Assembly (NCBI GenBank): GCA_964612415.1
Contig: CAZTCT010000001.1
Span: 137,949-201,948 of the forward strand
Source of the DNA: an uncultured Candidatus Saccharibacteria bacterium
Lineage (GTDB): Bacteria > Patescibacteriota > Minisyncoccia > Phycocordibacterales > CAYRGE01
Reading direction: 5' to 3'
Length of the DNA: 64,000 bases
Shown here: positions 296-45,309 of the stretch, in pieces
Numbering within the stretch: position 1 is the first letter of the stretch
Layout: every line of letters starts with the position of its first letter
Notes under the pieces: generated by a model
Seen by the model: only the letters and a program-made list of their open reading frames with translations
Databases searched by the model: none
What the model was told of the DNA's origin: nothing
Program-made: the position numbers and the translations under genes

Positions 296-1456
296 ATGGA
301 AGGCGTAAAATGTATAAATGAAGCAGGAGATGTTCGGGGTAAAAAGGTTTTCGCCCGACTTGATCTAAATGTTCCCCTAGAGAATGGACGAGTAGAAGAT
401 ACTTTCCGTATCGATAAAGTGCTCCCTACGGTCCGGTATCTTATGGAGAGAGGGGCGCGTGTAATCATGGCGTCACATATTGGCGAAGAACCAAATGAAA
501 CACTGCGGCCTGTCGCTGAATATATTCAGGCACAGTTTCCAATTACTTTTATCGATGATATTTATAGCGATGACCTGAAGGATGTTGTTAAGAGTATGAC
601 CGAGGGGTCCGCTATTCTTCTTGAGAATCTTCGTTCAGCACCAGGCGAAACAAAGAACGATCCAGGGTTTTCTCGCTACTTGGCAGACCTTGCGGATATC
701 TATGTGAACGATGCATTTCCTGCAGCGCATCGTGCGCATGCGTCTATTGTTGGCATACCACAACTCATTCCAGGGTTTATGGGCTTACAGTTTAAAGACG
801 AGCTAGAGCACCTTTCAATGGCGCTTAATCCAAAACGCCCATTTCTATTTGCACTTGGAGGAGCGAAGTTTGAAACCAAAATCCCACTGATGGAGAAATT
901 TTTTGATATCGCAGATCATTTGTTTATCGGAGGAGCGCTCGCCAACGACTTTTTTAAACTCAAAGGTTATGAAATTGGGCAATCTCTCTCTGATGATGCC
1001 GGGGTTGATCTAAGGCACATGCTTGAGAGTGACAAACTTCTCCTGCCGGAAGATGTGTGGGTGATGACAGAGGCAGGCGAGAAGGAACTGCGCACACCGG
1101 GTGCGCTTTTGTCTACAGATAAAATTATGGATTCGGGGCCTAAGACTGTCGCGCGTGTCGGCGAGCTCGCAAAAAGTGCGGCGCTTGTGTTGTGGAATGG
1201 TCCGCTTGGAGAGTATGAAAAGGGTTTTGACTCGGGTACAAAAGGTCTCCTCTCTGCGCTTACCGAAAGTGGCGCAACAACCATCGTTGGTGGAGGTGAC
1301 ACTGTCGCACTTGTTCATGAAATGAAGATTGCCGACAAACTCAACTTCATCTCAACTGGAGGGGGTGCAATGCTCGATTTTCTTGCAGACGGGGAATTGC
1401 CCGGTATCGATGCGTTGGAAAAAGGACCTGCTTGGAATCCGGAGTCTACCCAATGA
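296..1456 (+). CDS. pgk: Phosphoglycerate kinase
   Basis: 386 aa with PGK hallmark motifs (hinge GGGDTVALV, GGGAMLDFL). It starts 1 nt after the tpiA stop. Confidence 0.9.
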   Translation: MEGVKCINEAGDVRGKKVFARLDLNVPLENGRVEDTFRIDKVLPTVRYLMERGARVIMASHIGEEPNETLRPVAEYIQAQFPITFIDDIYSDDLKDVVKSMTEGSAILLENLRSAPGETKNDPGFSRYLADLADIYVNDAFPAAHRAHASIVGIPQLIPGFMGLQFKDELEHLSMALNPKRPFLFALGGAKFETKIPLMEKFFDIADHLFIGGALANDFFKLKGYEIGQSLSDDAGVDLRHMLESDKLLLPEDVWVMTEAGEKELRTPGALLSTDKIMDSGPKTVARVGELAKSAALVLWNGPLGEYEKGFDSGTKGLLSALTESGATTIVGGGDTVALVHEMKIADKLNFISTGGGAMLDFLADGELPGIDALEKGPAWNPESTQ

Positions 1457-2826
1457 TTTTTTCTTTAAAAAAGACAGAGCTACTTCTTGGAGTTTTTGTC
1501 TTCCTTTTTTATACAAGTCTTCTTGCGGCGATTGTTTTGGTGGGAAATGGGCGCGGGCTTCAAGCAGAAAATGTTTTTTCCCCTGAGGGGACGGATGCTC
1601 GCGAGTACGTTTCTCTGGCTCAAACATTAGTCTCCTCGCAACGGTATGCGATATCTCCTGATAGCCCCCCAGAGTATTTCAGGAGTCCTGGATATCCTAT
1701 GTTTATTGCCCCAATCCTTTCCGTAACGGATTCAACAGCTGTTCTTATTGTTGTCCAAATACTGCTAGTATCGGTTTCTGCTGTGTTTATTTATAAAATT
1801 GCGGCGGAATTATTTTCTCATTGGGTTGGCTTGGTCACTACCCTTATCTTTGTCTTAGATCCGGCAGTTATTACAACCTCACTCGTTACCCTTACCGAGC
1901 CTCTTTTTATAGCACTACTGCTTGGTACTACATGGGTTCTATTGCGGGAACACTCAACGAGAAACGTTATTTTGGCGGGAGTGCTTATGGGGGCACTTAT
2001 CCTTACACGCCCAGTAGGGATCTTTTTGGCCCCATTGTTTGTCTGCTTACTGATATATAAGGGGAATAAGGATTTAAAGACTATTTTGATAAGGAGTGCC
2101 GCCTTTGTTGGCGTAAGTGTCGTTGTTTTTGTTCCATGGATGATTAGGAATGTGTATCTTTCTGGGCATTTTTCACTTTCTTCCATATCGACCTATAACA
2201 TGCTTTTTTACAACGTAGTTGAGTTTGAAGTACAGAAAGGAGCCCCCAAAACAGAATTCATTAAAGGTCTTCAAGAACGCCTCGGGAGCAATAGTGATTT
2301 TGAGCTTCGGTCTTTTGACTATGCCGCAGAAGAACAAGCCCTTATCCACGAGTACCTTACGGGGCATGTTTTTTCGTACGCACTATTTCATCTGACAAAA
2401 ACAGCCCCCTTCTTCTTAGGGAGTAGTCTTGATGTTGCTGAGCGGCATTTATTTGGGCTTGGGCTTTTGGATAGGGAGCCAGGACCAAGTGCAAATATAT
2501 CTGGTCTTCTAATTTCAGGGGATGTAGAGGGTGTGATGTCTTTAATGCGCGAGCATTTTTGGATAACAGGGGAAAGAATTTGTTGGCTGCTACTCACAAT
2601 ACTTGCTCTTAGTTTGCCAGTGGTTCTGTTTTTTAAAAAAGATTCTCGCGCGGCAATCGCGCTGCTCTTCTCCCTGCTAATTCTTTTGTTTGCGATACTG
2701 GCTGGCCCTGTTTCGCACCCTCGATACCGAATCCCAGCAGAACCCTTCTTGCTCATTCTTGCCTTCGGCAACATTTATGTTATTAGTAAAGCGATTTGGG
2801 CCGCGTATGCCAAGAAATTTATATGA
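1453..2826 (+). CDS. Polytopic membrane glycosyltransferase, GT-C fold (ArnT/PMT, GT83/GT39-like)
   Basis: More than 10 predicted TM helices. The first extracytoplasmic loop carries a GTDAREY motif resembling the GT-C catalytic D-x-x-E-Y. The ATGA start/stop overlaps the pgk stop. The longer upstream start at 1432 is less likely. Confidence 0.5.
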   Translation: MIFSLKKTELLLGVFVFLFYTSLLAAIVLVGNGRGLQAENVFSPEGTDAREYVSLAQTLVSSQRYAISPDSPPEYFRSPGYPMFIAPILSVTDSTAVLIVVQILLVSVSAVFIYKIAAELFSHWVGLVTTLIFVLDPAVITTSLVTLTEPLFIALLLGTTWVLLREHSTRNVILAGVLMGALILTRPVGIFLAPLFVCLLIYKGNKDLKTILIRSAAFVGVSVVVFVPWMIRNVYLSGHFSLSSISTYNMLFYNVVEFEVQKGAPKTEFIKGLQERLGSNSDFELRSFDYAAEEQALIHEYLTGHVFSYALFHLTKTAPFFLGSSLDVAERHLFGLGLLDREPGPSANISGLLISGDVEGVMSLMREHFWITGERICWLLLTILALSLPVVLFFKKDSRAAIALLFSLLILLFAILAGPVSHPRYRIPAEPFLLILAFGNIYVISKAIWAAYAKKFI

Positions 2827-3272
2827 ATACTCCAACTGACATTGTTACATCACCGGAATCTGAAAGTGGAATAACGACGACTATTATAGGCTCTCGTACT
2901 ACCCAGGAATTTGTTCGTTATTTTGCAGCATCTCTCCTTGCGCTTATAGTTGACATTGGGTCTCTTGCTTTACTAACAAGTTTTTTTCACGTCCCGTATC
3001 TTACATCAGGATGGATTGCATTTACCTTCGGGTTGACCATTGTGTATTTATTGAGCATCTTTTGGGTTTTTGAGGTGCGCAAAGTGCGAAATGTCTGGAT
3101 TGAGTTCTTTGCCTTCCTTATTATCGGAGTTGTTGGTCTTGGGATCAATGAGGTAATTCTCTGGGTCTTTACAGGTCTTCTTGGGTTTTTCTACCTTATA
3201 TCAAAAATCGGAAGTGTAATTGTTGTTTTCACATGGAATTTTTTTGCACGTAAATTTTTGCTTTTCCAATAA
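2823..3272 (+). CDS. GtrA-like small membrane protein (polysaccharide-synthesis associated)
   Basis: About 150 aa with four hydrophobic helices and a GtrA-family-like layout. ATGA overlap with the upstream GT-C gene suggests translational coupling. Confidence 0.45.
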
Positions 3273-3273
3273 T

Positions 3274-4839
3274 ATGACTAGCGATAATCAAAAAAAGAAA
3301 ACAGCTGTCATTATTGGTGGTGGGCCCGCTGGGCTGACAGCAGCATATGAGCTTCTCCTTCGAACAGACATAAAGCCAATCATCCTAGAGCGCGACCCTA
3401 AGTATGTTGGAGGGATTTCCAGGACCGTTGATTATAAAGGGAACAAGATTGATATTGGGGGCCACCGGTTTTTTTCAAAATCAGATCGCATCATGCAGTG
3501 GTGGGCAGAAATGCTTCCAATTCGGTTCAAAGAAGGATCTTCGGATATTACTTACCAACGGACTACGCGCGCACTTACAGAAGGGCTTGCCATGGCAAAT
3601 GACTCACATGGAGAAAATGTGATGCATGTTCGCCCGCGAAAGACTCGCATTTTGTACGGGAATAATTTCTATGCATATCCGGTGGAGCTTTCTTGGGATA
3701 CGCTGCGTAAGTTAGGGCCGATAAAAGTCTTTAAAATTGGCGTAACATATACATGGTCCACACTTTTCCCTCGGAAGCCGGAGAAGACTCTAGAAGATTT
3801 TTTCATCAATAGGTTTGGAGAGGAACTTTATAAAACATTTTTCAAATCATATACGGAGAAGGTGTGGGGTGTTTCGTGCAGTGAATTGTCTGCCGAATGG
3901 GGCGCACAGCGGGTCAAAGGTCTTTCTATAAAGAAGGTAATCACACATGCGCTTAAAAAGGTGTTTTCATTTGGGCCTCTTTCAGGGAAGTCTGTTGAGA
4001 CATCGCTTATTGAACAATTTCTTTATCCAGCGTATGGGCCTGGTTTTATGTGGGAAACGGTTGCAAAAAATATCAAACAACTTGGCGGAGAGATATACAT
4101 GGGCGCTGATGTGGTGCGCTTAGATCACAAGGAGATGAAAGTGGTAGATGTCTTGTGTAAAGTCGATGGGCGGGGGCAGTCTTTCCACGCAGATTATGTC
4201 TTTTCTAGTACAGATATAAAGACCCTTTCAAAAATTATGTCACCATCTGTGCCACAGTCAGTCAAAGAAGTATCTGACGGTCTTGAATATCGAGATTTTA
4301 TTACAGTTGGGCTTCTATTAGAAAGACCCCCTCAAGAAAAAAATGGAGAGCCTATCTCTGACACATGGATGTATATTCATGAACCAGGCGTGTCGGTGGG
4401 GAGAATTCAGTTCTTTCACAACTGGGACCCACTTCTCCTTGCCTCACCAGAGAATGGGTGGGTTGGGCTTGAGTTCTTTTGCGCCGAAGGAGATGCTTTG
4501 TGGAGTATGAAGGACGAGCATCTGGCTAAACTTGCAACAAAGGAGTTTATGCAATTAGGGCTTTGCGAAAATAATGTGGTCTTAGACACGGTTGTTATTC
4601 GACAGCCAAAAGCGTATCCTGGGTATTTTGGGAGCTATACTCAATTTTCTGAAATAAGAGATTACTTTGATAAATTCAATAACCTGTTCCTTGTAGGGAG
4701 AAATGGGATGCATCGTTATAACAATCAAGATCATTCAATGCTTGCCGCAATGGCCGCGGTGGACTTCATATTGGGGAATGTTGAAAGGGAAGCAATCTGG
4801 AGTGTAAATACTGAAGAGAGCTACCACGAAACCAAATAG
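3274..4839 (+). CDS. FAD/NAD(P)-binding oxidoreductase (amine-oxidase / UDP-galactopyranose-mutase-like Rossmann fold)
   Basis: N-terminal dinucleotide-binding motif [16 protein letters not shown]. 521 aa. Co-located with glycosyltransferase genes. Confidence 0.55.
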
Positions 4840-5992: not shown

Positions 5993-6400
5993 TTATAGAA
6001 GTTCGCGGATTTTTTGTGCAGTTTTTTCCATCTCTCCTTCTTTGTAAGGTGATCCTACCCAATGGGTGTGGCCGTCATCTTTATGGCGAGTTATCACATG
6101 AAAGTGAGCATGAAAAATAAGTTGCCCAGCATAGCCCCCGTTGTTCATGTGAATATTTATGCCGTCTGCATTCACTGCCTCTTTTGCTGCTGCAGCAAGT
6201 TTTTTTAAAATTGGAGCCATGTGAGATAAATCCTCATCAGGGATTTCGTGGAGATTTGCGTAGTGCTCCTTTGGGATTAAAAGTATGTGCCCGGGGTTTA
6301 CTGGTTTTATATCAAGGAACGCGTAGGATTTTTCGTCCTCATACACTTTTTCGCTTGGGGTTTCTCCGGCAACAATCTTGCAAAAGAGGCAATCATTCAT
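5993..6400 (-). CDS. HIT-family (histidine triad) nucleotide hydrolase
   Basis: Histidine triad HAHFHVI. Conserved N-terminus MNDCLFCKI starts at an internal Met (ATG at 6400-6398). The longer ORF-track start at 6559 would overlap recJ. Confidence 0.8.
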   Translation of the reverse strand: MNDCLFCKIVAGETPSEKVYEDEKSYAFLDIKPVNPGHILLIPKEHYANLHEIPDEDLSHMAPILKKLAAAAKEAVNADGINIHMNNGGYAGQLIFHAHFHVITRHKDDGHTHWVGSPYKEGEMEKTAQKIRELL

Positions 6401-6428
6401 AGGGTGATTGTATGCTAAAATGTGATGC

Positions 6429-8150
6429 ATGAAAAGTGCTTCAAAGCGCGTCTCTCCTTCAAAAGCGGCAAAGGAAGAGTTCATTGAGTATCCTCCATTA
6501 TTGCGCGACCTTCTCATAAAGAGAGGAATCGCTACACGAGAAGATGCGGAAGTTTTCATGGCTCCTAATTACGATCGTGACGTGTACGATCCATTTCTCA
6601 TTAAAGGAATGGAAAAGGCGGTTTCCCGTATTCTTGCTGGGATTAGAGCGCAGGAGCGCATTATTATTTATAGTGACTACGATGCCGACGGAATCCCTGG
6701 GGGAGTAATTCTGCATGACTTTTTTCAAAAGATCGGGTACGAAAATTTTGGAAACTATATTCCCGATAGACACACAGAAGGATACGGGCTCAATCATGAA
6801 GCGCTTACCTCTTTTAAAAAAGATAATGCGACGCTCATTATTACCGTAGACTGCGGCATTGCTGATGTTGAAGAAGTTGCATTTGCACAAGACAATGGCA
6901 TGGACGTCATCGTAACCGACCACCATCTTCCGCAGGAAGTTCTGCCAAAAGCATTTGTTATTCTCAACTCAAAACAAGAAGATGATACGTATCCATTCAA
7001 AGAGCTAGCTGGCGCAGGCGTTGCATACAAATTAGTGCAGGCACTTGTTGAAAAAGGAAGAGAAGAGAAATTATTTGACGTGCCGGTGGGGTGGGAGAAG
7101 TGGCTCCTTGATATGGCAGGTATCGCTACGATCTCTGATATGGTGCCGCTAAAAGGAGAGAACAGGGCTCTTGCGCACTTTGGGCTGCATGTATTGCGGA
7201 AGAGCAGACGTCCTGGGTTGAAAAAACTTCTTTCAAAACTGAAAATTAATCAGAGAGATATCACGGAAGACGACATTTCATTTATGGTTGCTCCTCGCAT
7301 CAACGCAGCGAGCAGAATGGATGTTCCGTTTGAAGCATTCAGATTATTTGCTACACAAAATGACGATCTCGCAGCAGAACTTGCTGATCACCTGCATCAT
7401 ATTAATGATATGCGCAAAGGTCTCGTTGCTTCTATTGTGAAAGAAGCGCGCAAGACTCTTGGGAAAAGAGAGGAAAAAAATATTATCGTCATCGGAGATC
7501 CAAATTGGCGTCCGGGCATACTTGGGCTTGTCGCAACACGCCTTGTTGAGGATTTTAAGAAACCCGCATTCGTGTGGGGTGGTGGGGAGAGTGGGCATCT
7601 CAAAGGATCGTGTCGCTCTGATGGGACGGTCAATGTGGTTGAGCTCATGACACAAGTCTCCGCAGGCACCTTTGTTGATGTAGGCGGACATGAGTTTTCA
7701 GGGGGATTTTCTGTTTCACGTGAGCGCGTGCATTTTCTTGAGGAAGAACTTATTCGTGTATATGACTCGGTCAAGAAGTCTACTTCCCACACACCGCTCT
7801 ACAATATAGATGCGGAGCTCCCAGTTTCTGCGGTTACATGGGATACCTATGCATCAATAGAGAAACTTGCTCCGTTTGGTGTGGGGAACCCGAAGCCGGT
7901 CTTTATGTTTCGCGATGTGACGGTAGAGAGTGTCGCTTTCTTTGGAAAAGAACGCAATCATGTGCGCCTTAAAGTTTCTTCTGGAAACGCGCGCTCAGAT
8001 GCAATTGGCTTCTTCTTTCAGAAAGAACTTTTCCCTGAAGTTTCTTTTGAGAAGGGCGCGCGTATCCATCTTGTTGGATCAATAGAAAAATCAACTTTTG
8101 GATCTCGTCGGGAATTGCGTCTACGCATCGTAGATGTTTTGCCGAATTAG
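6429..8150 (+). CDS. recJ: Single-stranded-DNA-specific exonuclease RecJ
   Basis: DHH motif (VIVTDHHLP), a DHHA1-like C-terminal region and a GGGH-like motif. 573 aa. Confidence 0.85.
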   Translation: MKSASKRVSPSKAAKEEFIEYPPLLRDLLIKRGIATREDAEVFMAPNYDRDVYDPFLIKGMEKAVSRILAGIRAQERIIIYSDYDADGIPGGVILHDFFQKIGYENFGNYIPDRHTEGYGLNHEALTSFKKDNATLIITVDCGIADVEEVAFAQDNGMDVIVTDHHLPQEVLPKAFVILNSKQEDDTYPFKELAGAGVAYKLVQALVEKGREEKLFDVPVGWEKWLLDMAGIATISDMVPLKGENRALAHFGLHVLRKSRRPGLKKLLSKLKINQRDITEDDISFMVAPRINAASRMDVPFEAFRLFATQNDDLAAELADHLHHINDMRKGLVASIVKEARKTLGKREEKNIIVIGDPNWRPGILGLVATRLVEDFKKPAFVWGGGESGHLKGSCRSDGTVNVVELMTQVSAGTFVDVGGHEFSGGFSVSRERVHFLEEELIRVYDSVKKSTSHTPLYNIDAELPVSAVTWDTYASIEKLAPFGVGNPKPVFMFRDVTVESVAFFGKERNHVRLKVSSGNARSDAIGFFFQKELFPEVSFEKGARIHLVGSIEKSTFGSRRELRLRIVDVLPN

Positions 8151-8181
8151 TAATGTAGCAGAAATGGTATAGTGTACGGCA

Positions 8182-8895
8182 ATGGAAATATCAAAAAACA
8201 TTATTGCGTATGCGGATGGGAGCTCACTTGGCAATCCTGGCCCAGGAGGATGGGGAGCTCTTGTCTATAAACCAGACACACAGGAAGTAGCAGAGCTTGG
8301 CGGTAGAGATGAGCACACGACAAACAACAGAATGGAGCTTACTGCAGCAATCTCCGCGCTTGTTGAAATCGGAGAAACTTCGTTGCCGATAATTCTCCAT
8401 TCGGATTCTTCATATGTAATAAATGGCATTACAAAATGGGTTTCAGGATGGATGAAGCGTGACTGGATAACAGCCCAAAAAACTCCTGTGCAGAATGTTG
8501 ATCTATGGAAAGAACTTGTGGATGTGTGCGAAGGGAAAAATATTTCATGGCGACATGTTGCTGGACATTCAGGACTACCTGGCAATGAGCGTGCAGATCG
8601 TATTGCGGCTTCTTTCGCGGAGGGGAAGAAAGACGCATTATATCGAGGCCCTATGAAAGGCTACCCCATTGATGTTACGGATGTTTCTTATGACAAGAGC
8701 AAGCAAGATACTCGTGCACGAAGCAAAGCCCGTGCGTACTCGTATGTAAGTCTCGTTGATGGAGTGATCATGCGACATGCTACATGGGATGAATGCAAGC
8801 AACGCGTTGAAGGGAAGGGGAATGTACGTTTCAAAAAAACTTTAGACGCAAAAGACGAAGCTCGCCTTATGAAGGAGTGGCAGAGGACTGTTTAA
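8182..8895 (+). CDS. rnhA: Ribonuclease HI with an approximately 85-aa C-terminal extension
   Basis: ADGSSLGNPGPGGWGAL...TNNRMELTAAISAL...HSGLPGNERAD is canonical RNase H type 1. The extra basic C-terminal tail is not part of the canonical domain. Confidence 0.85.
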   Translation: MEISKNIIAYADGSSLGNPGPGGWGALVYKPDTQEVAELGGRDEHTTNNRMELTAAISALVEIGETSLPIILHSDSSYVINGITKWVSGWMKRDWITAQKTPVQNVDLWKELVDVCEGKNISWRHVAGHSGLPGNERADRIAASFAEGKKDALYRGPMKGYPIDVTDVSYDKSKQDTRARSKARAYSYVSLVDGVIMRHATWDECKQRVEGKGNVRFKKTLDAKDEARLMKEWQRTV

Positions 8896-8898
8896 AGT

Positions 8899-10398
8899 AT
8901 GAAGACAAGCAGGCTCATTCTCCTGTTTGTCATGTTCCTCGGGGGAGTGGTCGCAAGTTTTGTTTTTGATGCGGATGTATATATAGGCGCCTTTGGGTTT
9001 TTGCTCGGGGGCGCTCTTTTTGTGTACGGGAAGATGGTTCGTGTGGGCAGCGTTTTATTTGTTTCATCACTTTTCATACTTTTCTCTGTCGGTGTCTTTC
9101 GTACGGGGATGATTCACTGGACAGAAAGAAGCGCTCTGCTTGATGAACAAGTGGGGGCGGAGATTATTTTGGAAGGAGTTATTGATGATGAGCCTGATGT
9201 AAGAGCAGGGCGTACTATTTTGGTATTCAAGCCGCAATCAATTCAGGAAGGAGGAAGAGATGTAGACATACAAAATCAGAAGAGGAGTCGGGTTAGGGTG
9301 TACGTTGATCCATATCCGCAATGGCGCTATGGGGAACATGTGCGGTTGCAAGGAGTTCTGGAATTCCCAGAAAATTTTGAGAGTGACACAGGTCGTACTT
9401 TCAACTATGTCTCCTATCTTGCAAAAGACGGTATCTTCTATCAAATGTATCGTCCGCAAGTTACAAGTGTTGGTGAGACAAACAAGCGTTCGATTAAAAG
9501 TGTTTTGTTTTCAATCAAAGCTACCCTCGTTGAGAAAGTAAATGAAGTTCTTCCAGAGCCAGAGAGCTCACTTGCTGGCGGCATTACTTTGGGCGCGAAG
9601 TCATCGCTTGGTGAAGATCTGCTCGATAAGTTTCGTATCACGGGGATTATTCATATTGTAGTTTTGTCTGGGTACAACATCACTATTGTTGCGGATTCAA
9701 TCATGAGAGTTCTAGGGATTTTGCCCAGAATGTTTTCACTTTTGGCGGGGTCAATTGGGGTTGTGTTGTTTGCGATTATGACAGGAGCTGGCGCTACTGT
9801 GGTAAGGGCATCTATCATGGCGCTTCTTGTCGTCATTGCGCGTGCAACTGGGCGAGTGCATGAAACGGGACGCATACTGCTCTTTGCAGCTGCAGCGATG
9901 GTGTTATGGAATCCATACATACTTTTATTTGATCCATCGTTTCAACTTTCATTTGTTGCTACGCTTGGTCTCATTTACCTTTCACCAGTACTTGAGCGCG
10001 CCTTTTCCAAAATCCCAAAGCGTTTTGATTTACGCGCAATTGCCTCTGCGACAATAGCCGCACAGATTGCTGTGTTGCCGCTTCTTCTTTATCAGAGCGG
10101 CATCTTCTCGACTGTCTCATTGCCAGTGAACATGCTTATCTTGCCATTTGTTCCGCTTGCCATGCTCGCAAGTTTTCTCGCCGCAATGTGTGGTTTCATT
10201 GGTGTGGCCTTTGCCTTTCCATTTGGGCTGATTGCGTACTCACTTCTTGCTTATATGTTTGGGGTCGTGGAATTCTTTGCCGGAGTTCCGTTTTCTGCAA
10301 TCACCATTCCTACATTTCCTCTGTGGGCCGTATTTGCCTCGTATGGACTCCTCGCTATTTTGCTCGTGCGTATATATAGACCAACGTCCAAAAATTAA
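8899..10398 (+). CDS. comEC: ComEC/Rec2-family DNA-uptake channel, membrane part (DUF4131 plus competence domain); no fused MBL domain
   Basis: N-terminal TM, an OB-like periplasmic segment, then about 8 TM helices typical of the ComEC competence domain. The ORF stops before any beta-lactamase domain. Confidence 0.7.
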   Translation: MKTSRLILLFVMFLGGVVASFVFDADVYIGAFGFLLGGALFVYGKMVRVGSVLFVSSLFILFSVGVFRTGMIHWTERSALLDEQVGAEIILEGVIDDEPDVRAGRTILVFKPQSIQEGGRDVDIQNQKRSRVRVYVDPYPQWRYGEHVRLQGVLEFPENFESDTGRTFNYVSYLAKDGIFYQMYRPQVTSVGETNKRSIKSVLFSIKATLVEKVNEVLPEPESSLAGGITLGAKSSLGEDLLDKFRITGIIHIVVLSGYNITIVADSIMRVLGILPRMFSLLAGSIGVVLFAIMTGAGATVVRASIMALLVVIARATGRVHETGRILLFAAAAMVLWNPYILLFDPSFQLSFVATLGLIYLSPVLERAFSKIPKRFDLRAIASATIAAQIAVLPLLLYQSGIFSTVSLPVNMLILPFVPLAMLASFLAAMCGFIGVAFAFPFGLIAYSLLAYMFGVVEFFAGVPFSAITIPTFPLWAVFASYGLLAILLVRIYRPTSKN

Positions 10399-10997
10399 TA
10401 TTTCTTAAATCCTTCAACTTCCTCAACTACAGCTTCACTGTTTATGTATTTATAGAAAAGGGCGATGACGACTAGCGCGATAAGCGCGAGGACAACTGCA
10501 TATGGGCCAAATACTTTTGCGCTTTTGCCGAAGTAATATCCAATTGCAAGAAATGGTGCAGTCCAAATAACCGAAGAAACAAAAATAATCATGGCGTAAA
10601 CTACGCGGTTCATCTTTGCGATTCCTGCCGGGATGGGGACGAATACTTTAATTGCAGGAAGAAGTTTGCCGACAAAAAGAAAGAAGCCACCTCTTTTTTG
10701 AAATGCGATCTGTACCTTGCTTATCTCGCGCGCGGGAAAGAGCGGCCATCGAGTGAGGTATTCAAGACCTTTGGCACGAGCAAATTCGTAGAGAAGTATA
10801 TTTCCTATTGTGTTGCCGAGTGCTCCCACAAGCACCACAAGCCAAAGTGTGAGATTGCCGGTGAATATGAAATACCCAGCAATAATATAGAGTACTTGGC
10901 TTGAGGGGACACTTACTGCTCCATTAGCGATCATGAGTAGAAATATCCCGGCGTATCCAGAAATCGTGATGATGTGTTCGAGTGTGCCTTCTCCCAT
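10395..10997 (-). CDS. DedA/TVP38 (SNARE-associated) family membrane protein
   Basis: DedA signature spacing (G-x-x-x-G ... F-R-x-LP-like, LLYEFARAKG...RWPLFPAR) and multiple TM helices. The start was chosen at the internal Met (MGEGTLEH). The longer ORF reaching 11252 would overlap the opposite-strand MBL gene. Confidence 0.6.
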   Translation of the reverse strand: MGEGTLEHIITISGYAGIFLLMIANGAVSVPSSQVLYIIAGYFIFTGNLTLWLVVLVGALGNTIGNILLYEFARAKGLEYLTRWPLFPAREISKVQIAFQKRGGFFLFVGKLLPAIKVFVPIPAGIAKMNRVVYAMIIFVSSVIWTAPFLAIGYYFGKSAKVFGPYAVVLALIALVVIALFYKYINSEAVVEEVEGFKKY

Positions 10998-11030
10998 ATT
11001 GATTGGATTGTAGCATGCTACGATAAGGCA

Positions 11031-11885
11031 ATGAATCGCAATCGGCGACTCTTGTGGGCGATTATCTTTTTGATCGGAGTGAATGTGTTTGTCTGGACGG
11101 CGCTTTATATACAAAGCACGCCAAATGAGCTTATCGTTGCTTTCTTGGATGTGGGGCAGGGTGATGCGATTTTTATCAAAGCTCCCAATGGGCATGAACT
11201 TCTTGTTGATGGAGGGCCTCCCGATGGATCGGCACTTAGAGCACTTGGACAAGTTATGCCGTTTTATGATCGCTCTATTGATGTTGTCTTAGCGACACAT
11301 CCAGATCAAGATCACATCGGAGGGCTGCCTGCTATTGTGGAGAGGTTTTCCGTTGGAGCTTTTATTGAATCGGGGAACAAAAAAGAATCTGCGGTAATGG
11401 ATGCTCTATTGTCCGGCGTTGAGAGAAAGGACATTGAACATATAATTGCTACAAGGGGAATGCGCGTCGCGTTTTCTCCCAGTATCTTTTTTGATGTCTT
11501 GTTTCCAGATCGGGATGTGAGTGATCTTGAGAGCAACGCGGCATCCATTGTTGGAGTCCTGACTTATGGCAGTACATCATTTCTTTTGACAGGAGATTCT
11601 CCATCTGCCATTGAACGGTATTTAGTTTCAATAGATGCAAAGAGTCTTGATGTTGATGTTCTTAAACTCGGACACCATGGCTCCCGCACCTCATCATCAC
11701 CAGAATTTCTTGCTGCTGCTTCGCCGGAATATGCGATTGTGTCCGCGGGCAAAGACAACCAATACGGACACCCTCATAAGGAGGTTATAGAGAATGTAGG
11801 AAATATAGGAGCAAAAATCCTCGCTACTATAGATGAGGGGGCGATTGTGTTTTTCTCTGATGGGGAAACCCTAAAGTACAAATAG
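11031..11885 (+). CDS. ComEC-type metallo-beta-lactamase-domain protein with N-terminal TM anchor (the detached C-terminal ComEC module)
   Basis: MBL motifs VLATHPDQDHIGGL and LKLGHHGS, as in the ComEC C-terminal nuclease domain. An N-terminal hydrophobic helix begins at MNRNRRLLWAIIFLIG. An alternative start is 10974. Confidence 0.65.
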   Translation: MNRNRRLLWAIIFLIGVNVFVWTALYIQSTPNELIVAFLDVGQGDAIFIKAPNGHELLVDGGPPDGSALRALGQVMPFYDRSIDVVLATHPDQDHIGGLPAIVERFSVGAFIESGNKKESAVMDALLSGVERKDIEHIIATRGMRVAFSPSIFFDVLFPDRDVSDLESNAASIVGVLTYGSTSFLLTGDSPSAIERYLVSIDAKSLDVDVLKLGHHGSRTSSSPEFLAAASPEYAIVSAGKDNQYGHPHKEVIENVGNIGAKILATIDEGAIVFFSDGETLKYK

Positions 11886-11895
11886 ACAATAAATA

Positions 11896-11925
11896 AACGG
11901 CTCAACCAATTGATTGAGCCGTTTT
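11896..11925. terminator. Palindromic terminator element, family copy 1 (aacggctcaaccaattgattgagccgtt)
   Basis: 10-bp stem with A/T-rich flanks, between convergent genes 11031-11885(+) and rpmB(-). Confidence 0.55.
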
Positions 11926-11930
11926 CCTCC

Positions 11931-12134
11931 TTATTTCACGCTTACGAGATGCTTGTTTGCCTTGAGGCAGCGGGTGCAGATTTTCTCGCGATGACCGTCG
12001 GAAAAAGTAGCCCACTGGAGGTTGGGTTGTCTTCGGACATTGCCGGTCGGGTTGAACTTGGTCGCACGGACACGGTTTGAGTAGCGTCCTCCGACTTGGG
12101 TTCCCTTATTACAAATGGGGCATGCTTTTGCCAT
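11931..12134 (-). CDS. rpmB: 50S ribosomal protein L28 (Zn-ribbon type)
   Basis: MAKACPICNKGTQVGGRYSNRVRATKFNPTGNVRRQPNLQ...CTRCLK matches bL28 with two CxxC pairs. The start was set at the internal Met of the longer track ORF. Confidence 0.75.
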   Translation of the reverse strand: MAKACPICNKGTQVGGRYSNRVRATKFNPTGNVRRQPNLQWATFSDGHREKICTRCLKANKHLVSVK

Positions 12135-12186
12135 ATATTTATCGTGTTCGGCTATGTTATCATAAACCCTATATTTCGCAAGACGT

Positions 12187-12810
12187 ATGGATGCTGACAT
12201 CATAAGCGCAATTTTCTTCATAGCGATACTCATTATGTCTGTGGTGATACACGAAGTTTCCCATGGCTACGTTGCCAATATCTTCGGCGACCCTACTGCG
12301 CGCTTGGCGGGGAGACTTACCCTCAATCCTGTTCCTCACATAGATCCACTGGGTTCGTTTATCATCCCTGCGATCCTCTTCTTCTCTACGCACGGGTCTT
12401 TCGTCTTCGGATGGGCGAAGCCAGTGCCGGTAAATCCATACAATATTAAGAAAGGGAGATTGGGCATGGGACTTGTCAGTGCCGCAGGAGTGCTCTCCAA
12501 TCTTCTTGTCGCCATCATCTTTGGGCTCATTGTGAGATTCTCGGAAGCATTGGCACTATCCTCCTCCTTTGTAGAGATTGCGCTCAATATTATGGTCATC
12601 AACCTCGTACTCGCTATCTTCAATCTCATCCCCGTTCCTCCCCTCGATGGGTCCAAGGTCCTCTTTAGCCTCCTTCCTGTGCGCCTTCATTATATAGAGG
12701 AGGCCTTGGAGCGGTACTGGATGTTCCTTATTATAGGGGTACTTTTGCTCGCTCCCTCTATTATTCTTCCTATTTTGCAGTTCATGGTCAGGCTCTTGGT
12801 AGGGGTATAG
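12187..12810 (+). CDS. Site-2 protease family (M50) intramembrane zinc metalloprotease
   Basis: HEVSHG (HExxH) inside a TM helix plus the LNPVPHIDPLGS motif. About 6 TM helices. Divergent from rpmB. Confidence 0.65.
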   Translation: MDADIISAIFFIAILIMSVVIHEVSHGYVANIFGDPTARLAGRLTLNPVPHIDPLGSFIIPAILFFSTHGSFVFGWAKPVPVNPYNIKKGRLGMGLVSAAGVLSNLLVAIIFGLIVRFSEALALSSSFVEIALNIMVINLVLAIFNLIPVPPLDGSKVLFSLLPVRLHYIEEALERYWMFLIIGVLLLAPSIILPILQFMVRLLVGV

Positions 12811-12896
12811 GCAAAGGGGCGGACAGGGCCCTTGCATTTTGTTCTCGGAAATAGTAAGGTATCCATACGCGCCTTGGGCGCTTGTTTTAATAACTT

Positions 12897-13322
12897 ATGG
12901 CGACAATCAACCAACTCTCACGCAAAAGCCGACGAAAGCCAGTCAAGAAGACAAAGACGGCAGCTTTGTCGCGCGGTTTTAATACACTCAAGAACAGACC
13001 GGTGTACTTCTCATCACCGTTCAAGCGTGGGGTATGTACGAAAGTTACGACCACAACGCCCAAGAAACCTAACTCAGCTCTCCGAAAGATCGCCCGTGTC
13101 CGCCTTACCAATGGAACAGAGGTCACCGCTTATATTCCTGGCATGGGACACAATCTCCAAGAACACTCAGTAGTTGTCCTCCGTGGAGGAAAGGTGAAAG
13201 ACCTTCCTGGTGTTCGCTATCAGGTAGTACGCGGTGTGCTTGATGCATCTGGTGTTGATAAGCGAATGAAAGGACGCAGTCGTTATGGTGCTAAACGCCC
13301 TAAAGCCGGTGCTAAGAAATAA
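12897..13322 (+). CDS. rpsL: 30S ribosomal protein S12
   Basis: [10 protein letters not shown]...[10 protein letters not shown]...[30 protein letters not shown] matches uS12. Confidence 0.95.
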
Positions 13323-27587: not shown

Positions 27588-28121
27588 ATGTCACGTCTCG
27601 GAAAAAACCCAATAGTTATCCCCGCAAACGTAGAAGTGTCTACTGATGGTGTTTCTGTGCGTGTGAAGGGTCCAAAAGGGGAGATTTCTCGTCCAGTTCG
27701 CAGCGAGGTTTCAATTGAGATCAAAGATAAAGAAATCACCCTTGCTCCCAAAAATAATTCAAAGTTCGCACGCTCTCTTTGGGGCACGTATGCAGCACAT
27801 ATCAAGAATATGGTTGAAGGTGTTGTTACTCCTTTTGAGAAAAAGCTTCAAATTGAAGGCGTGGGGTATCGCGCAGAAATGACCGGCAACAAACTCACAC
27901 TTTCTCTTGGTTACTCACATAAAATCAATGTTGAGGTTCCAGCAGGACTTACCGCTACCGTTGAGAAAAATATCATTACCATTGTTGGAGCTGACAAGGA
28001 GTTGGTAGGCTACTTTGCGGCAAAGATCCGCAGCTTCAGGAAGCCAGAGCCATATCAAGGAAAGGGTATTCGTTATGAAGGCGAGGTTATTCGTATGAAG
28101 GAGGGTAAGAAGACCGCGTAA
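27588..28121 (+). CDS. rplF: 50S ribosomal protein L6
   Basis: MSRLGKNPIVIPANVEV matches uL6. 177 aa. Confidence 0.95.
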   Translation: MSRLGKNPIVIPANVEVSTDGVSVRVKGPKGEISRPVRSEVSIEIKDKEITLAPKNNSKFARSLWGTYAAHIKNMVEGVVTPFEKKLQIEGVGYRAEMTGNKLTLSLGYSHKINVEVPAGLTATVEKNIITIVGADKELVGYFAAKIRSFRKPEPYQGKGIRYEGEVIRMKEGKKTA

Positions 28122-28130
28122 TAAAACTGT

Positions 28131-28484
28131 ATGAAAAAGATTCGTAACCAAAAAACAGAAAAACGTTTCTCCCGCCACAAGCGCATCCGCGCCAAGGTTT
28201 CTGGTACCAAAGAGTGCCCACGTCTTTCTGTGTATCGCTCTAACAAGCATTTTTACGCACAGCTTATTGATGATGAGGCACGCCGAACGATCGTCTCTGT
28301 TTCTGATATGGGAACAAAGAAGGGAACAAAGACCGAGCATGCGGGGAAGGCAGGAGAAGAGCTCGCGCGCATGGCAAAGGAGCAGAAGATTGAGAAGGTC
28401 GTTTTTGATAGAGGAGGTTTCCTTTATGCAGGGCGCATCAAGGCTTTTGCAGAAGGGGCTCGTAAAGGAGGACTCAAGTTTTAA
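28131..28484 (+). CDS. rplR: 50S ribosomal protein L18
   Basis: RLSVYRSNKHFYAQLIDD...FDRGGFLYAGRIKAFAEGAR matches uL18. Confidence 0.9.
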   Translation: MKKIRNQKTEKRFSRHKRIRAKVSGTKECPRLSVYRSNKHFYAQLIDDEARRTIVSVSDMGTKKGTKTEHAGKAGEELARMAKEQKIEKVVFDRGGFLYAGRIKAFAEGARKGGLKF

Positions 28485-28487
28485 TAT

Positions 28488-29099
28488 TTGCGTATGACAG
28501 AAGAAACAAAGAAAATTGAACAAGATACAAAAGGTGGTGCTCAGACGACTGAGAAGCCTACATCTCCTGCGCAAGGATTTGGCGGAAGAGAGCGTGGTCG
28601 TCGTGGCGGACGAGGAGGACGAGGCGGACGAGGAGGCAAAGGGCGGGACAAAGGTGGAGAGCGATACCGTCCAGAGTTTGATCAGAAGATGATCGATATC
28701 CGACGCGTAGCTCGTGTTGTTGCTGGAGGACGCCGCTTTAGCTTCCGGGTTTCTGTGGTTATCGGAAACAGGAAAGGTATGGTAGGCGTTGGTCTTGGCA
28801 AAGCGGGAGACACTTCTCTTGCCATTGATAAAGCTGTTCGCGATGCGCGAAAGAATGCGATCAACATTCAACTTACAAAAGAAATGTCTATCCCTCACAA
28901 GACTGAGGCAAAGTACGCAAGTGCTTCAGTAGAGATACGACCTGCTCCAGGAAAAGGTCTTGTCGCGGGAAGCTCTGTCCGTAGCGTACTTGATCTTGCG
29001 GGGGTAACAAACGTGACCGCAAAGATCCTGACTCGTAGTAAGAACAAGTTGAACAATGCCCGTGTTGCGGTTAAAGCACTCGAGAAGCTTAATGGATAG
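28488..29099 (+). CDS. rpsE: 30S ribosomal protein S5 with Gly/Arg-rich N-terminal extension; no rpmD (L30) follows
   Basis: uS5 core (VARVVAGGRRFSFRVSVVIGN) preceded by (GGR)n repeats. rplO starts 10 nt after its stop. Confidence 0.9.
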   Translation: MRMTEETKKIEQDTKGGAQTTEKPTSPAQGFGGRERGRRGGRGGRGGRGGKGRDKGGERYRPEFDQKMIDIRRVARVVAGGRRFSFRVSVVIGNRKGMVGVGLGKAGDTSLAIDKAVRDARKNAINIQLTKEMSIPHKTEAKYASASVEIRPAPGKGLVAGSSVRSVLDLAGVTNVTAKILTRSKNKLNNARVAVKALEKLNG

Positions 29100-39944: not shown

Positions 39945-40135
39945 CTCGGGTTGCTTGGATTAATAAGTCCACTTTTGACACTCGTTAGGGAGTCTCTATT
40001 GGAACGCGCAGGGCATGCCGAAAGGCGTACCGAATGAGCGTTCTTGCGGGCACCCACCTTTATATTTAAAAGGGGGCTTCCGTACTCCAAGCAACCCTTT
40101 ACAACACTCGCCCGTGCGGCGAGTTTTGTATTTCA
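39945..40135 (+). ncRNA. Candidate structured small RNA (approximately 190 nt) with its own promoter, 11-bp 5'/3' closing stem and intrinsic terminator; identity unassigned (6S- or SRP-RNA-like size)
   Basis: Extended -10 promoter TTGCTC-N18-TATAAT at about 39912-39941. The 5' gggttgcttgg (39947-39957) is complementary to ccaagcaaccc (40086-40096). There is an internal GNRA-capped helix (ggcatgcc-gaaa-ggcgtacc) and a terminator ctcgcc-cgtg-cggcgag-ttttgtattt at 40107-40135. No ORF is present. Confidence 0.3.
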
Positions 40136-40158
40136 AGCTTTTTTGCATAAATTATTAT

Positions 40159-40545
40159 ATGTCTTTACGTAATTTTCCTACAGAACTTGCATATCTTGTT
40201 CTCGGCATATTTATCGTGAATACAGCGGCGGTATTTTGGGGCTGGTATTACATAGTTCCCTCTATTGATATCCCACTTCATCTGGCTGGAGGATTTTGGG
40301 TTGGGGGAAGTGGCATGTGGGGCTACTACGCGTTTTCCAAAAAAATATCTAAAAAACTCAGCGTCACGATAGTGGGGTCAATGCTGATTGCCATTGTCAT
40401 TGGCGCTCTTTGGGAGGGGTTTGAGTTCTATACCAATTTATTACTCGCTCGAGAGCCTTTCAGCGCGCTTGATACGATGGGAGACATGATATGCGATATA
40501 ATTGGCGGAGTATGTGCGGGCTGGTATATTTCTAGAAAACCATAA
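40159..40545 (+). CDS. Small polytopic membrane protein (approximately 128 aa, 4 TM; VanZ-like size/topology)
   Basis: Start chosen at MSLRNFPTELAYLVLGIFIVN, after the candidate RNA terminator. The upstream part of the track ORF overlaps that RNA and is rejected. Confidence 0.4.
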   Translation: MSLRNFPTELAYLVLGIFIVNTAAVFWGWYYIVPSIDIPLHLAGGFWVGGSGMWGYYAFSKKISKKLSVTIVGSMLIAIVIGALWEGFEFYTNLLLAREPFSALDTMGDMICDIIGGVCAGWYISRKP

Positions 40546-40553
40546 ACGAATAC

Positions 40554-41924
40554 ATGGACAAAAAACTCTCAATTACTTTTCATGGAGGAGCGCGTAAGGT
40601 TACCGGATCAAACTTTCTCGTCACTACACCCGAAATATCTTTTCTGGTTGACTGCGGACTCTTTCAAGGAGAGCAGGGTGATTCAGCACGGAATCAAGAG
40701 AAATTCCCATACGATCCGTCTTCTATCGGGGCCTTGTTTGTGACGCACGCGCATCTTGACCATATTGGGCGCATTCCGGCGCTAGTGAGCTCAGGATTTT
40801 CTGGGCCAATCTATTCAACACATCCAACGCGTGATATGGCAGAGCTTGTTTTTGCCGACGGGGTGCGCATCTTTGAATACAACGAAAGGACAAAAGGTAT
40901 TAAGCCGCCTTACACAAAAGCAGATGTTGCCAAGACGTTGAGTCTTTGGCAGCCGATTGAATACCACAAAAAAATAGAACTTAGTCCAAATGTAACTGTT
41001 TCCTTATTGAACTCAGGGCACATTCTTGGTTCTGCCATGGTGGATATTTCTTATGCAGGGAAGAGGGTTGTGTTCACTGGCGATCTTGGCAATTCTCCTG
41101 CGCCACTTCTGCAAGATGTTGAGTCAATTAAGGGGGCTGACTACTTAGTCATGGAAAGTGTATATGGCAATCGTACGCATGAAGGGCGAGAAGACAGAGT
41201 GCGTATTTTTGAAGAGATCATTGAGGAGACCATCAAGGCGAAGGGTGTGCTCATGATCCCCGCGTTTTCTATTGAGAGGACACAAAATCTTCTTTTTGAA
41301 CTTGATCACCTTGTGACCTCAAAGAAAATTCCGGACGTGCCTGTATTTTTGGACTCACCACTTGCGATAGGAATCACGGAAATTTACAAGAAATATCGCG
41401 GTTCATTTAATGAACGAGCACAGGACATCTTAGCAAATGATGGGACTGTCTTTGAATTCCCACGTCTCAAAAAGACCAAAGAAGTGGAAGACTCTATTGC
41501 CATTAATGACGCACCAGCACCCAAGATCATCATTGCAGGGTCGGGCATGTCGGATGGGGGACGCATTATGCATCATGAGAAGCGCTATCTGGCAGATCCT
41601 CACAATACGCTGCTACTTGCGGGGTTTCAGGCCGTGGGGACGCTTGGACGTGCACTTTCGGACGGGGCAAAAGAGGTTGAAATTGATGGAGCGAAAATTC
41701 CCGTTCGAGCACGTATTATCGCACTGCGCGGGTATTCTGCTCACTGTGACTCAGACGGGCTGCTTGAATTTGTGAACAATGGAGCTGATTCGCTCAAGCA
41801 GGTGTTTGTCGTGTTGGGAGAGCCGGAGAGCTCGTTTTTCCTTGCACAACGGATACAAGATTATTTGGGCGTAAAAGCTACGGTGCCAAATCAAGGGGAT
41901 ACAGTTGAGTTGCAATTTGATTAA
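40554..41924 (+). CDS. MBL-fold beta-CASP family RNA-metabolising hydrolase (RNase J / CPSF73-like)
   Basis: HAHLDHIGRIP (HxHxDH), a beta-CASP segment, and C-terminal RGYSAHCD (motif C). 456 aa. Confidence 0.75.
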   Translation: MDKKLSITFHGGARKVTGSNFLVTTPEISFLVDCGLFQGEQGDSARNQEKFPYDPSSIGALFVTHAHLDHIGRIPALVSSGFSGPIYSTHPTRDMAELVFADGVRIFEYNERTKGIKPPYTKADVAKTLSLWQPIEYHKKIELSPNVTVSLLNSGHILGSAMVDISYAGKRVVFTGDLGNSPAPLLQDVESIKGADYLVMESVYGNRTHEGREDRVRIFEEIIEETIKAKGVLMIPAFSIERTQNLLFELDHLVTSKKIPDVPVFLDSPLAIGITEIYKKYRGSFNERAQDILANDGTVFEFPRLKKTKEVEDSIAINDAPAPKIIIAGSGMSDGGRIMHHEKRYLADPHNTLLLAGFQAVGTLGRALSDGAKEVEIDGAKIPVRARIIALRGYSAHCDSDGLLEFVNNGADSLKQVFVVLGEPESSFFLAQRIQDYLGVKATVPNQGDTVELQFD

Positions 41925-44363: not shown

Positions 44364-44475
44364 CAGGAACCTCCTGCTTTACTAGGCGTATCGTTGTCTG
44401 TGCCGAATATAACACAGATTTATAAAAAAACGACCCCCAACAAAGAGGGTCAAAGGGGTGGACGCGACGGTGGTA

Positions 44476-44580
44476 TTAGTCGGCAGAAGCTACGATGAGA
44501 TACAGAGCAATAATAACTGCAGCAAGTGGCAGAATGTCTTCGGGTGCAATGTGTGGGAGCCTTATCTTTGGCATTTTCAT
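44476..44580 (-). CDS. Candidate small hydrophobic peptide (34 aa; MKMPKIRLPHIAPEDILPLAAVIIALYLIVASAD)
   Basis: A GGAGGTG Shine-Dalgarno lies 5 nt upstream of the ATG. The C-terminal half is a single TM helix. It is below the ORF-track size cutoff. Confidence 0.25.
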   Translation of the reverse strand: MKMPKIRLPHIAPEDILPLAAVIIALYLIVASAD

Positions 44581-44661
44581 CAGCACCTCCTAGCAAACAA
44601 TCCCACTACAAGAGTATCACAAAAGATGTTCGGATGCAGGAGTCCGATATATACTAAGCAT

Positions 44662-45309
44662 ATGAAGATTACAAAGTTCGGACACAGCTGTCTTTTGATA
44701 GAAGAAGGGATTGCGCGTATCTTACTTGATCCAGGAGAGTATTCCGACATCCCTCGCGTGTCTGGACTCTCGGCCATTTTGATCACACACGAACATCGCG
44801 ATCATATATCAATACCAAAGCTGCAAACTATTTTAGAAAACAATGAAGGAGTAGAGATTATCACACATGAAGGAGTGGGCAAGCTTCTTGATACTGCGGG
44901 GATTGCGTATCGTTATTTAGGACACGAGGACGGAATAAATATAAATGGAGTTTCAATTGAGAGCTTTGGCGTCAATCACGAAGTGATACACGACACGGTC
45001 CCCATTGTGAGAAACACAGGATTTCTGATCGCAAAGCATTTTTTCTATCCAGGTGATAGGCTCTACAATCCTCATGTTCCAGTTGAGATACTTGGGTTGC
45101 CGGTTGCAGCACCATGGGCCACCATAGGGTATTTGGCGGATTACGCAAAAGAGGTAAATCCAAAAAAAGTAATCCCCATGCATGATGGGATGCTCAAACA
45201 AGGAGATATTCTCACTAATGGTCCCACACGCAAACTTTTAAAAAAAATTTTAGAACCGCTTGGTATTGAGTATGTAGACATGGAGGAAGGTTCTGTGTGG
45301 GAGGGGTAA
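44662..45309 (+). CDS. MBL-fold metallo-hydrolase
   Basis: Starts at MKITKFGHSCLLIEEG with HxHxDH as ITHEHRDH. The start was set at the internal Met. The 5' part of the longer track ORF overlaps the antisense small ORF. Confidence 0.7.
   Translation: MKITKFGHSCLLIEEGIARILLDPGEYSDIPRVSGLSAILITHEHRDHISIPKLQTILENNEGVEIITHEGVGKLLDTAGIAYRYLGHEDGININGVSIESFGVNHEVIHDTVPIVRNTGFLIAKHFFYPGDRLYNPHVPVEILGLPVAAPWATIGYLADYAKEVNPKKVIPMHDGMLKQGDILTNGPTRKLLKKILEPLGIEYVDMEEGSVWEG

Follow-up and report, generated by a model that had tools for sequence, protein, structure and literature searches.

Gene layout and the two portions of ComEC

The window, the whole stretch of DNA analysed here, comprises 64,000 nucleotides (nt) of contig CAZTCT010000001.1 (positions 137,949 to 201,948 of the forward strand; GenBank assembly GCA_964612415.1) from an uncultured Candidatus Saccharibacteria bacterium that GTDB places in the Patescibacteriota. 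It encodes the channel and nuclease portions of ComEC, the universal pore of natural transformation, on two separate polypeptides. The gene for the channel protein and the gene for the nuclease, which displays a metallo-β-lactamase (MBL) fold, lie on the same strand and are separated by an antisense gene encoding a membrane protein of the DedA/VTT family (Table 1). The three open reading frames (ORFs) have, to the base, the coordinates given in a preliminary description of this DNA, and public gene calls contain the same products of 499, 200 and 284 residues. The stop codons of the channel and dedA genes overlap in the tetranucleotide TTAA (10395–10398), and the start codons of dedA and of the MBL gene are 33 nt apart, in agreement with the earlier estimate of less than about 35 nt.

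The channel protein matches DUF4131 (Pfam, E 1.4e-19) and, over model positions 1–269 of 270, the Competence domain PF03772 (E 3.4e-53, 181 bits); the domain on whose presence the preliminary assignment of this half depended is therefore there. The protein aligns with positions 91–364 of TIGR00361 (ComEC_Rec2, 663 positions) at 75.0 bits and, in a sequence search of the PDB, with residues 79–487 of 30bt_A, a solved ComEC of 801 residues (E 8e-29). Its AlphaFold2 (AF2) model (pLDDT 81.8) opens with three N-terminal helices followed by the β-strands of an OB fold at residues 88–192, and it ends in a β-strand (402–404), two helices (407–432 and 436–461), a second short strand (467–469) and a final helix (475–493). 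ComEC as seen by cryo-electron microscopy contains 11 transmembrane (TM) helices, three of which precede the OB fold, and its nuclease domain follows TM11; two non-spanning helices, NS6 and NS7, lie between TM9 and TM10 and are flanked by two short β-strands, while a short cytoplasmic helix joins TM10 to TM11, the latter unseen in one protomer (PMC13539106). The end of the channel model thus corresponds to the NS6/NS7 hairpin plus one further helix, so that the chain stops directly after TM10. A Foldseek search of the channel model against a PDB set without full-length ComEC returned OB-fold-level matches only (MCM, AspRS and the ComEC OB fold 9iew).

The 284-residue protein carries a Lactamase_B domain (Pfam, E 6.7e-16), and its best NCBIfam model is again TIGR00361, here at positions 408–662 (E 4.3e-37, 127.6 bits). 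Among PDB sequences it matches ComEC nuclease domains with E values from 4.5e-36 to 2.4e-37, the lowest for 9ic4, and covers residues 522–789 of 30bt_A. The AF2 model (pLDDT 90.9) opens with a helix at residues 3–28 and continues into the MBL fold; in Foldseek the leading match is the ComEC nuclease domain 9ic4 (E 1.7e-26, TM-score 0.84), with the next fold ten orders of magnitude behind. The protein groups with ComEC (TIGR00361 and 9ic4); a grouping with non-ComEC MBL families, which the preliminary description had named as telling against its assignment, is not seen. It is very improbable that the protein is no part of ComEC and belongs instead to the B3-type β-lactamases or to the anti-phage MBL effectors, of which Avs1a and 6A-MBL are examples. 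Lower-ranking NCBIfam matches, to blaAHM (79.3 bits), Avs1a (62 bits) and 6A-MBL (32.7 bits), point in that direction, but these scores are far under the respective cutoffs of 590, 420 and 220 bits and TIGR00361 scores highest. The ComEC nuclease domain is, moreover, the top PDB match by both sequence and structure, the MBL gene stands in tandem with the channel gene in relatives, and the neighbours in the window are dedA, rpmB and an M50 peptidase gene, with no defence partner gene adjacent.

The metal and DNA ligand set of the window protein is formed by H90-x-D92-x-D94-H95, D189, H215/H216, S218 and H247/H249 and is invariant in 29 homologues. Its motif is H-x-D-x-D-H and not the H-x-H-x-D-H that is canonical for MBL enzymes (PMC12455585). 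The ComEC nuclease-domain residues whose mutation abolishes or reduces activity, H598, D600, D602, H603, D700, H725 and S728 (PMC12455585), align to H90, D92, D94, H95, D189, H215/H216 and S218; every catalytic residue is intact and, judged from its sequence, the nuclease looks active. A hydropathy scan reveals one hydrophobic segment, at residues 6–29, preceded by the basic stretch MNRNRR. Under the positive-inside rule this single TM helix predicts a cytoplasmic N-terminus and an outer C-terminus, which would leave the nuclease on the outer side of the membrane, its place in fused ComEC. The TM helix of the window protein is colinear with TM11 in fused ComECs from Chloroflexota, with which it has in common a Trp near the outer end.

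The segments of TIGR00361 matched by the two proteins do not overlap and thus represent complementary pieces of one ComEC; the coverage of 30bt_A is divided between them in the same manner. Almost no sequence is missing at the break, where a fused Chloroflexota protein (L044; the prefix L denotes loci used for comparison) has ~35 residues and the split pair 29. The ComEC chain is accordingly broken between TM10 and TM11, and the nuclease anchor is the equivalent of TM11. Neither protein reaches the TIGR00361 equivalog cutoff of 190 bits, and two polypeptides that each score below it make the pair a split variant rather than a canonical ComEC/Rec2 member. The preliminary description had taken the two outer ORFs for the channel and MBL portions of ComEC, as the matches to ComEC models bear out, and had excluded a simple frameshift, which holds.

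The arrangement is almost certainly no artefact of misassembly and no decayed ComEC pseudogenised by an inserted gene. Two independent assemblies from other sequencing runs display zero nt differences from the window over the region covered, which is the whole region (2987 nt) in L082 and 2419 nt, ending within the MBL gene, in L083. The relative L081, whose MBL protein is 75% identical, shows the same order of channel gene, antisense dedA and MBL gene, and the synteny block described below is kept across many genomes. Codon differences from L081 are mostly synonymous (83 synonymous against 18 nonsynonymous in dedA; 103 against 70 in the MBL gene), and both ComEC halves retain their invariant catalytic and channel residues. 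A fused ComEC in close relatives, from which a local rearrangement or assembly error had been foreseen, is not what these relatives carry: they are split.

Table 1 Coordinates of the comEC genes and of associated features in the window
Feature	Position	Strand	Description
ComEC channel gene	8899–10398	+	499 aa; OB fold (DUF4131) and Competence domain
DedA/VTT-family membrane protein gene	10395–10997	-	200 aa; antisense, between both ComEC genes
ComEC nuclease (MBL) gene	11031–11885	+	284 aa; one N-terminal TM helix and ComEC-type MBL
Divergent dedA/MBL spacer	10998–11030		33 nt between start codons; candidate shared regulatory region
Hairpin	11895–11924		13-bp stem; between convergent MBL gene and rpmB; terminator-like
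recJ	6429–8150	+	DHH, DHHA1 and RecJ_OB (Pfam); heads the run recJ, rnh, comEC channel
RNase H gene (rnh)	8182–8895	+	Pfam E 1.7e-41; immediately 5' of the channel gene
ComF-like phosphoribosyltransferase gene	62068–62742	-	Pribosyltran E 2.8e-11; DNA-uptake context
pilM	62826–63947	+	PilM_2 E 1.1e-28; type IV pilus assembly, context

Distribution of the split and content of the intervening slot

The comparative sample consists of 80 loci from species-representative genomes, including 57 patescibacterial and 20 Chloroflexota loci. Fused ComEC is present in 0 of the 57 patescibacterial loci, in contrast to 18 of the 20 from Chloroflexota. Each of the best 120 homologues of the MBL protein is a stand-alone protein of ~285 residues from Parcubacteria/Paceibacteria. 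Some bear the name "ComEC/Rec2 family competence protein" in NCBI or JGI annotation, so the annotators' models already recognise the relationship between this MBL and ComEC. Similarly, the best 120 channel homologues are all ~500 residues long and combine DUF4131 and Competence without an MBL.

Both halves are seen in 41 patescibacterial loci, among which the slot between them is variously filled. The halves stand directly in tandem in 18 loci, and an antisense Fe/Mn superoxide dismutase (SOD) gene is interposed in 15, alone in 11 and with further genes in 4 (L006:1697–2299(-), L017:7301–7894(-), L008, L009, L011, L014, L015, L016, L020, L022, L023, L025, L028, L032 and L035). Antisense dedA occupies the slot in 5 (L002, L003, L004, L007 and L036), and other content is found in the remaining 3. 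The tandem loci break at the same place, after TM10, with no intervening gene. Their two genes typically overlap by 4 or 8 nt (ATGA or ATGnnnTAA), such stop/start overlaps making translational coupling of the halves frequent in relatives. Stop-codon recoding was rejected as the origin of the tandem splits because the two genes mostly occupy different frames and the majority of stops are TAA. The slot SOD has ~197 residues, and its gene and the MBL gene usually diverge from a spacer of ~20–100 nt; no SOD gene was found in the window.

Interposed dedA is confined to the lineage of the window and to a Yonathbacteria-like group, together comprising the window, L081, L082, L083 and the five loci named above. 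The preliminary description had ComEC split by the antisense dedA gene and raised the question of whether DedA is always interposed. It is not, and since the same break is present in 18 loci with an empty slot and SOD fills the slot in 15, DedA did not cause the split; its interposition is a synteny detail only. The 200-residue protein itself matches PF09335 (VTT/DedA) with E 6.2e-13 and 49.7 bits, above the gathering cutoff of 33.9, and orthologues occupy the same slot in L081, L002, L003, L004, L007 and L036. It resembles the DedA/VTT family, which includes the UptA undecaprenyl-phosphate transporters, in its VTT domain and its approximately five to six hydrophobic segments, but it differs from UptA proper, scoring 54.3 and 51.8 bits against NF052604 and NF052605 with cutoffs of 250 and 300. 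As sister lineages carry sodA in the slot, no functional link between DedA and ComEC is indicated.

The slot lies within a conserved block of Paceibacteria, found in more than 20 loci (for example L003, L004, L008, L011 and L014), that runs HIT (-), recJ (+), rnh (+), channel (+), then sodA (-), dedA (-) or nothing, MBL (+) and, further on, rpmB (-) and M50 peptidase (+). Positions 5993–12810 of the window match this block gene for gene. The recJ, rnh and channel genes are encoded on the same strand and separated by 31 and 3 nt, a spacing that suggests that a single-stranded DNA exonuclease and the DNA import pore are co-transcribed.

Outside Patescibacteria, too, there are stand-alone, TM-anchored MBLs of the ComEC type, which best match TIGR00361 at positions ~412–663. 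Examples are L061:2784–3755 from Chthonomonadales and L074:7581–8942 from Chloroflexus, the latter displaying by eye a zinc-ribbon-like N-terminal segment and an Excalibur-like C-terminal tail. A further MBL, L041:7872–8831 from Anaerolineales, was assigned by Pfam scan only (Lactamase_B); a channel ORF lies 6 kb off and has a tail of ~250 residues without assignment, on account of which L041 was not accepted as a clean nested fission in Chloroflexota.

The divergent spacer and neighbouring genes

Of the 33 positions in the spacer between dedA and the MBL gene, 32 agree with L081, in comparison with ~77% identity in the flanking coding DNA, which suggests, from sequence conservation, that the spacer is a conserved control element. 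It contains a perfect 12-nt palindrome, GTAGCATGCTAC, at 11010–11021. As a candidate regulon motif the palindrome was rejected, since the window holds this single exact copy and near-matches occur at chance level. A mini-ORF (ATG CTA CGA TAA) is also present in the spacer and ends 5 nt 5' of the MBL start codon. Divergent spacers in the clade of the window mostly measure 14–115 nt. A sigma-70 scan of positions 6000–13000 gave 5 sites, compared with 10.7 in shuffles, and none in the dedA/MBL spacer.

With an antisense gene interposed the two halves cannot share a transcript and the MBL gene needs its own promoter; regulation of the nuclease apart from the channel is plausible. The hairpin downstream of the MBL gene is strong and terminator-like and would end the MBL transcript. 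A shared metal-responsive control linking the Mn/Fe SOD and the Mn-dependent nuclease is pure speculation.

Other genes related to DNA uptake lie elsewhere in the window, where the ComF-like gene and pilM are both found as had been described. The RNase H protein encoded immediately upstream of the channel has 237 residues, its domain being restricted to residues 5–144 and followed by a C-terminal stretch of ~90 residues without a Pfam match. Downstream of the hairpin, the longest ORF for rpmB (L28-like; 11931–12233, minus strand) extends by 47 nt over the beginning of the divergent M50 peptidase gene (12187–12810, plus strand); its Ribosomal_L28 match is weak (E 0.0025, residues 37–94), and translation probably begins at an internal Met instead, in which case there would be no overlap. 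Two further MBL-fold genes (40554–41924 and 44458–45309), one of the beta-CASP/RMMBL type (RNase J or CPSF-like) and the other Lactamase_B_3, have only the fold in common with the ComEC-type MBL. Two ORFs, at 27915–28898 (minus strand, 327 residues) and 40015–40545 (plus strand, 176 residues), gave no Pfam match at E ≤ 0.001.

A difference between the window and L082 concerns positions 1432–4839, compared with L082:795–2984. Between PGK and an O-FucT-like gene, the otherwise identical L082 is without a stretch of ~3.4 kb that holds the genes for a PMT_2 glycosyltransferase, a GtrA-like protein and an amine-oxidase-like flavoprotein. L083 carries at least the GtrA and oxidase genes, and the difference looks like an indel, at the level of strains, of a glycosylation island.

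A probable two-subunit ComEC and its relation to known systems

The locus probably encodes a naturally split, two-subunit ComEC. In subunit 2 (11031–11885) the basic N-terminus would remain in the cytoplasm and the TM11-like helix would place the ComEC-type, Mn-dependent MBL outside the membrane. The halves would reassemble in the membrane through TM11 and their extracytoplasmic surfaces, as the retained TM11 features and the adjacency of the genes suggest, and the nuclease would degrade the non-transported strand while the other strand crosses the pore, as in fused ComEC. The nuclease probably docks on the channel or acts nearby, outside the membrane. For the Patescibacteria as a whole, a two-subunit ComEC with a separate TM11-plus-MBL nuclease docking on the channel is put forward tentatively.

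The split is old, being present in every sampled patescibacterial locus, and the two genes would originally have been adjacent and translationally coupled. An antisense gene would have been inserted later in the lineage of Paceibacteria to which this genome belongs, sodA in most relatives and dedA here and in the Yonathbacteria-like group, with DedA a bystander and the MBL gene now run from its own promoter in the tight divergent spacer. Parsimony favours a single fission, placed at the base of Patescibacteria or close to it.

Several observations weigh against this interpretation. Six loci (L001, L005, L012, L029, L073 and L076) show no channel gene near the MBL gene within at least 8 kb of upstream flank, so tight co-expression is not obligatory; in L001 the channel gene is probably located elsewhere on the same contig. 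In vitro, the ComEC nuclease domain on its own binds DNA too weakly for detection, and a DNA-binding domain within the same polypeptide raises its activity markedly (PMC12455585), so that a split enzyme would be poor unless docked. DR0361, the second ComEC homologue of D. radiodurans, is dispensable for transformation (PMC7314969), which offers a lead rather than a comparison. Finally, the direction of the fission rests on parsimony: an outgroup-rooted neighbour-joining tree recovers monophyletic Patescibacteria in 11 of 50 bootstraps and monophyletic Chloroflexota in 6 of 50.

The same tree bears on the order of events. The preliminary description had left the choice between an ancestral two-gene state and a fission; fission is a reasonable reading of the data, with the deep order weakly recovered. 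In the opposite scenario the two-gene state is ancestral, channel and TM-anchored MBL having fused later in other phyla while Patescibacteria keep the old condition. This appears unlikely, as the fused form is present in Bacillota (30bt) as well as in most sampled Chloroflexota loci and the break falls in a short cytoplasmic loop from which almost nothing is lost. Recent rooted phylogenies place Patescibacteria inside Terrabacteria, next to Chloroflexota, a position that makes one fission more parsimonious. The ancestral scenario does receive support from the weakly recovered deep order of the MBL tree and from the reconstruction by Pimentel and Zhang of a Competence-only ancestor with several later gains of Lactamase_B (PMC6299819).

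The main rival to a two-subunit ComEC regards the stand-alone MBL as an independent, membrane-tethered surface nuclease comparable to EndA or NucA, which would cut DNA from the environment or from a host, to serve uptake or nucleotide salvage, under separate regulation, perhaps jointly with sodA or dedA through the spacer they share. The unlinked MBL genes of several genomes are consistent with it, as are the loss of translational coupling in the clade of the window, the gain there of a divergent partner with a short spacer, and the conservation of the window-lineage spacer beyond that of coding DNA. Stand-alone enzymes of this type outside Patescibacteria (L061, L074 and L041) and the existence of a separate membrane nuclease, EndA, in S. 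pneumoniae (PMC12455585; PMC8579336) provide further precedent. An independent nuclease is nevertheless rather improbable. In most patescibacterial loci the MBL gene lies beside the channel gene, often overlapping it, which is suggestive of stoichiometric co-production; the anchor keeps the position and the conserved Trp of TM11 and is no generic signal anchor; and the very weak binding of DNA by the isolated domain in vitro fits poorly with a nuclease acting alone. The preliminary description had invoked nucleotide scavenging as the reason for separate regulation, a weak rationale that is made weaker by transposon sequencing in Saccharibacteria, which provide the sole genetic evidence on comEC in the phylum (PMC10633639).

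If ComEC is split as proposed, the nuclease has not been lost in Patescibacteria but transferred to a separate gene. Roughly half of the known ComECs seem to be without a nuclease domain, and how the second strand is removed there is an acknowledged question (Silale 2021, PMC8579336); a split ComEC would explain second-strand degradation by seemingly nuclease-less ComECs for one very large clade. The nuclease gene of Paceibacteria would possess its own conserved bidirectional control region with sodA or dedA, making degradation tunable apart from pore synthesis, and the stand-alone enzymes of L061, L074 and L041 would hint at a wider use of such nucleases. Domain surveys that score only the Competence-containing protein miscount a "loss" wherever the nuclease sits in a gene of its own. 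A survey of CPR (Candidate Phyla Radiation) "MBL-like" genes considered them as possible resistance enzymes (PMC10459063), and some of these genes may be ComEC nuclease halves. The loop between TM10 and TM11 would also constitute a natural cut site in ComEC that is tolerated under selection and of use in structural and expression studies.

That CPR bacteria do not have the fusion is already published, the MBL-less ComEC family fam000603 being typical of them (Méheust 2019, PMC6744442), and the 499-residue protein of the window is exactly of that kind. Pimentel and Zhang (2018) score such proteins as being without Lactamase_B, separate genes not being considered, and list the ComEC of Deinococcaceae in the same way (PMC6299819). 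In both reports the MBL counts as absent or lost, in contrast to the present loci, where the nuclease half is a conserved separate gene that usually adjoins the channel gene. A full-text literature search for a ComEC nuclease encoded by a separate gene in CPR found no account of one, and the structural papers of 2025 and 2026 make no mention of split forms. What is known is thus that the fusion is absent in CPR; what is new is the nuclease half as a separate gene.

Among characterised systems, D. radiodurans offers two separately encoded ComEC-related genes, DR1854 and DR0361, in one genome. EndA of S. pneumoniae resembles the MBL half in being a nuclease apart from the channel polypeptide that is tethered on the membrane's outer face and serves DNA uptake. 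In contrast, it has no MBL fold and is not derived from ComEC, and pneumococcal ComEC keeps its own, probably inactive, MBL. The closest counterpart is fused ComEC/Rec2 itself, as in B. subtilis, Neomoorella carbonis (30bt) and N. glycerini (nuclease domain 9ic4), which displays the same order of three TM helices, OB fold, Competence pore, TM11 and MBL, the same H-x-D-x-D-H motif and the same further metal and DNA ligands. The MBL is outside the membrane in the fused form and is predicted outside here. The window pair differs in that the protein is encoded by two genes, the region of the cytoplasmic helix CH1 is essentially gone and an antisense gene lies between the halves.

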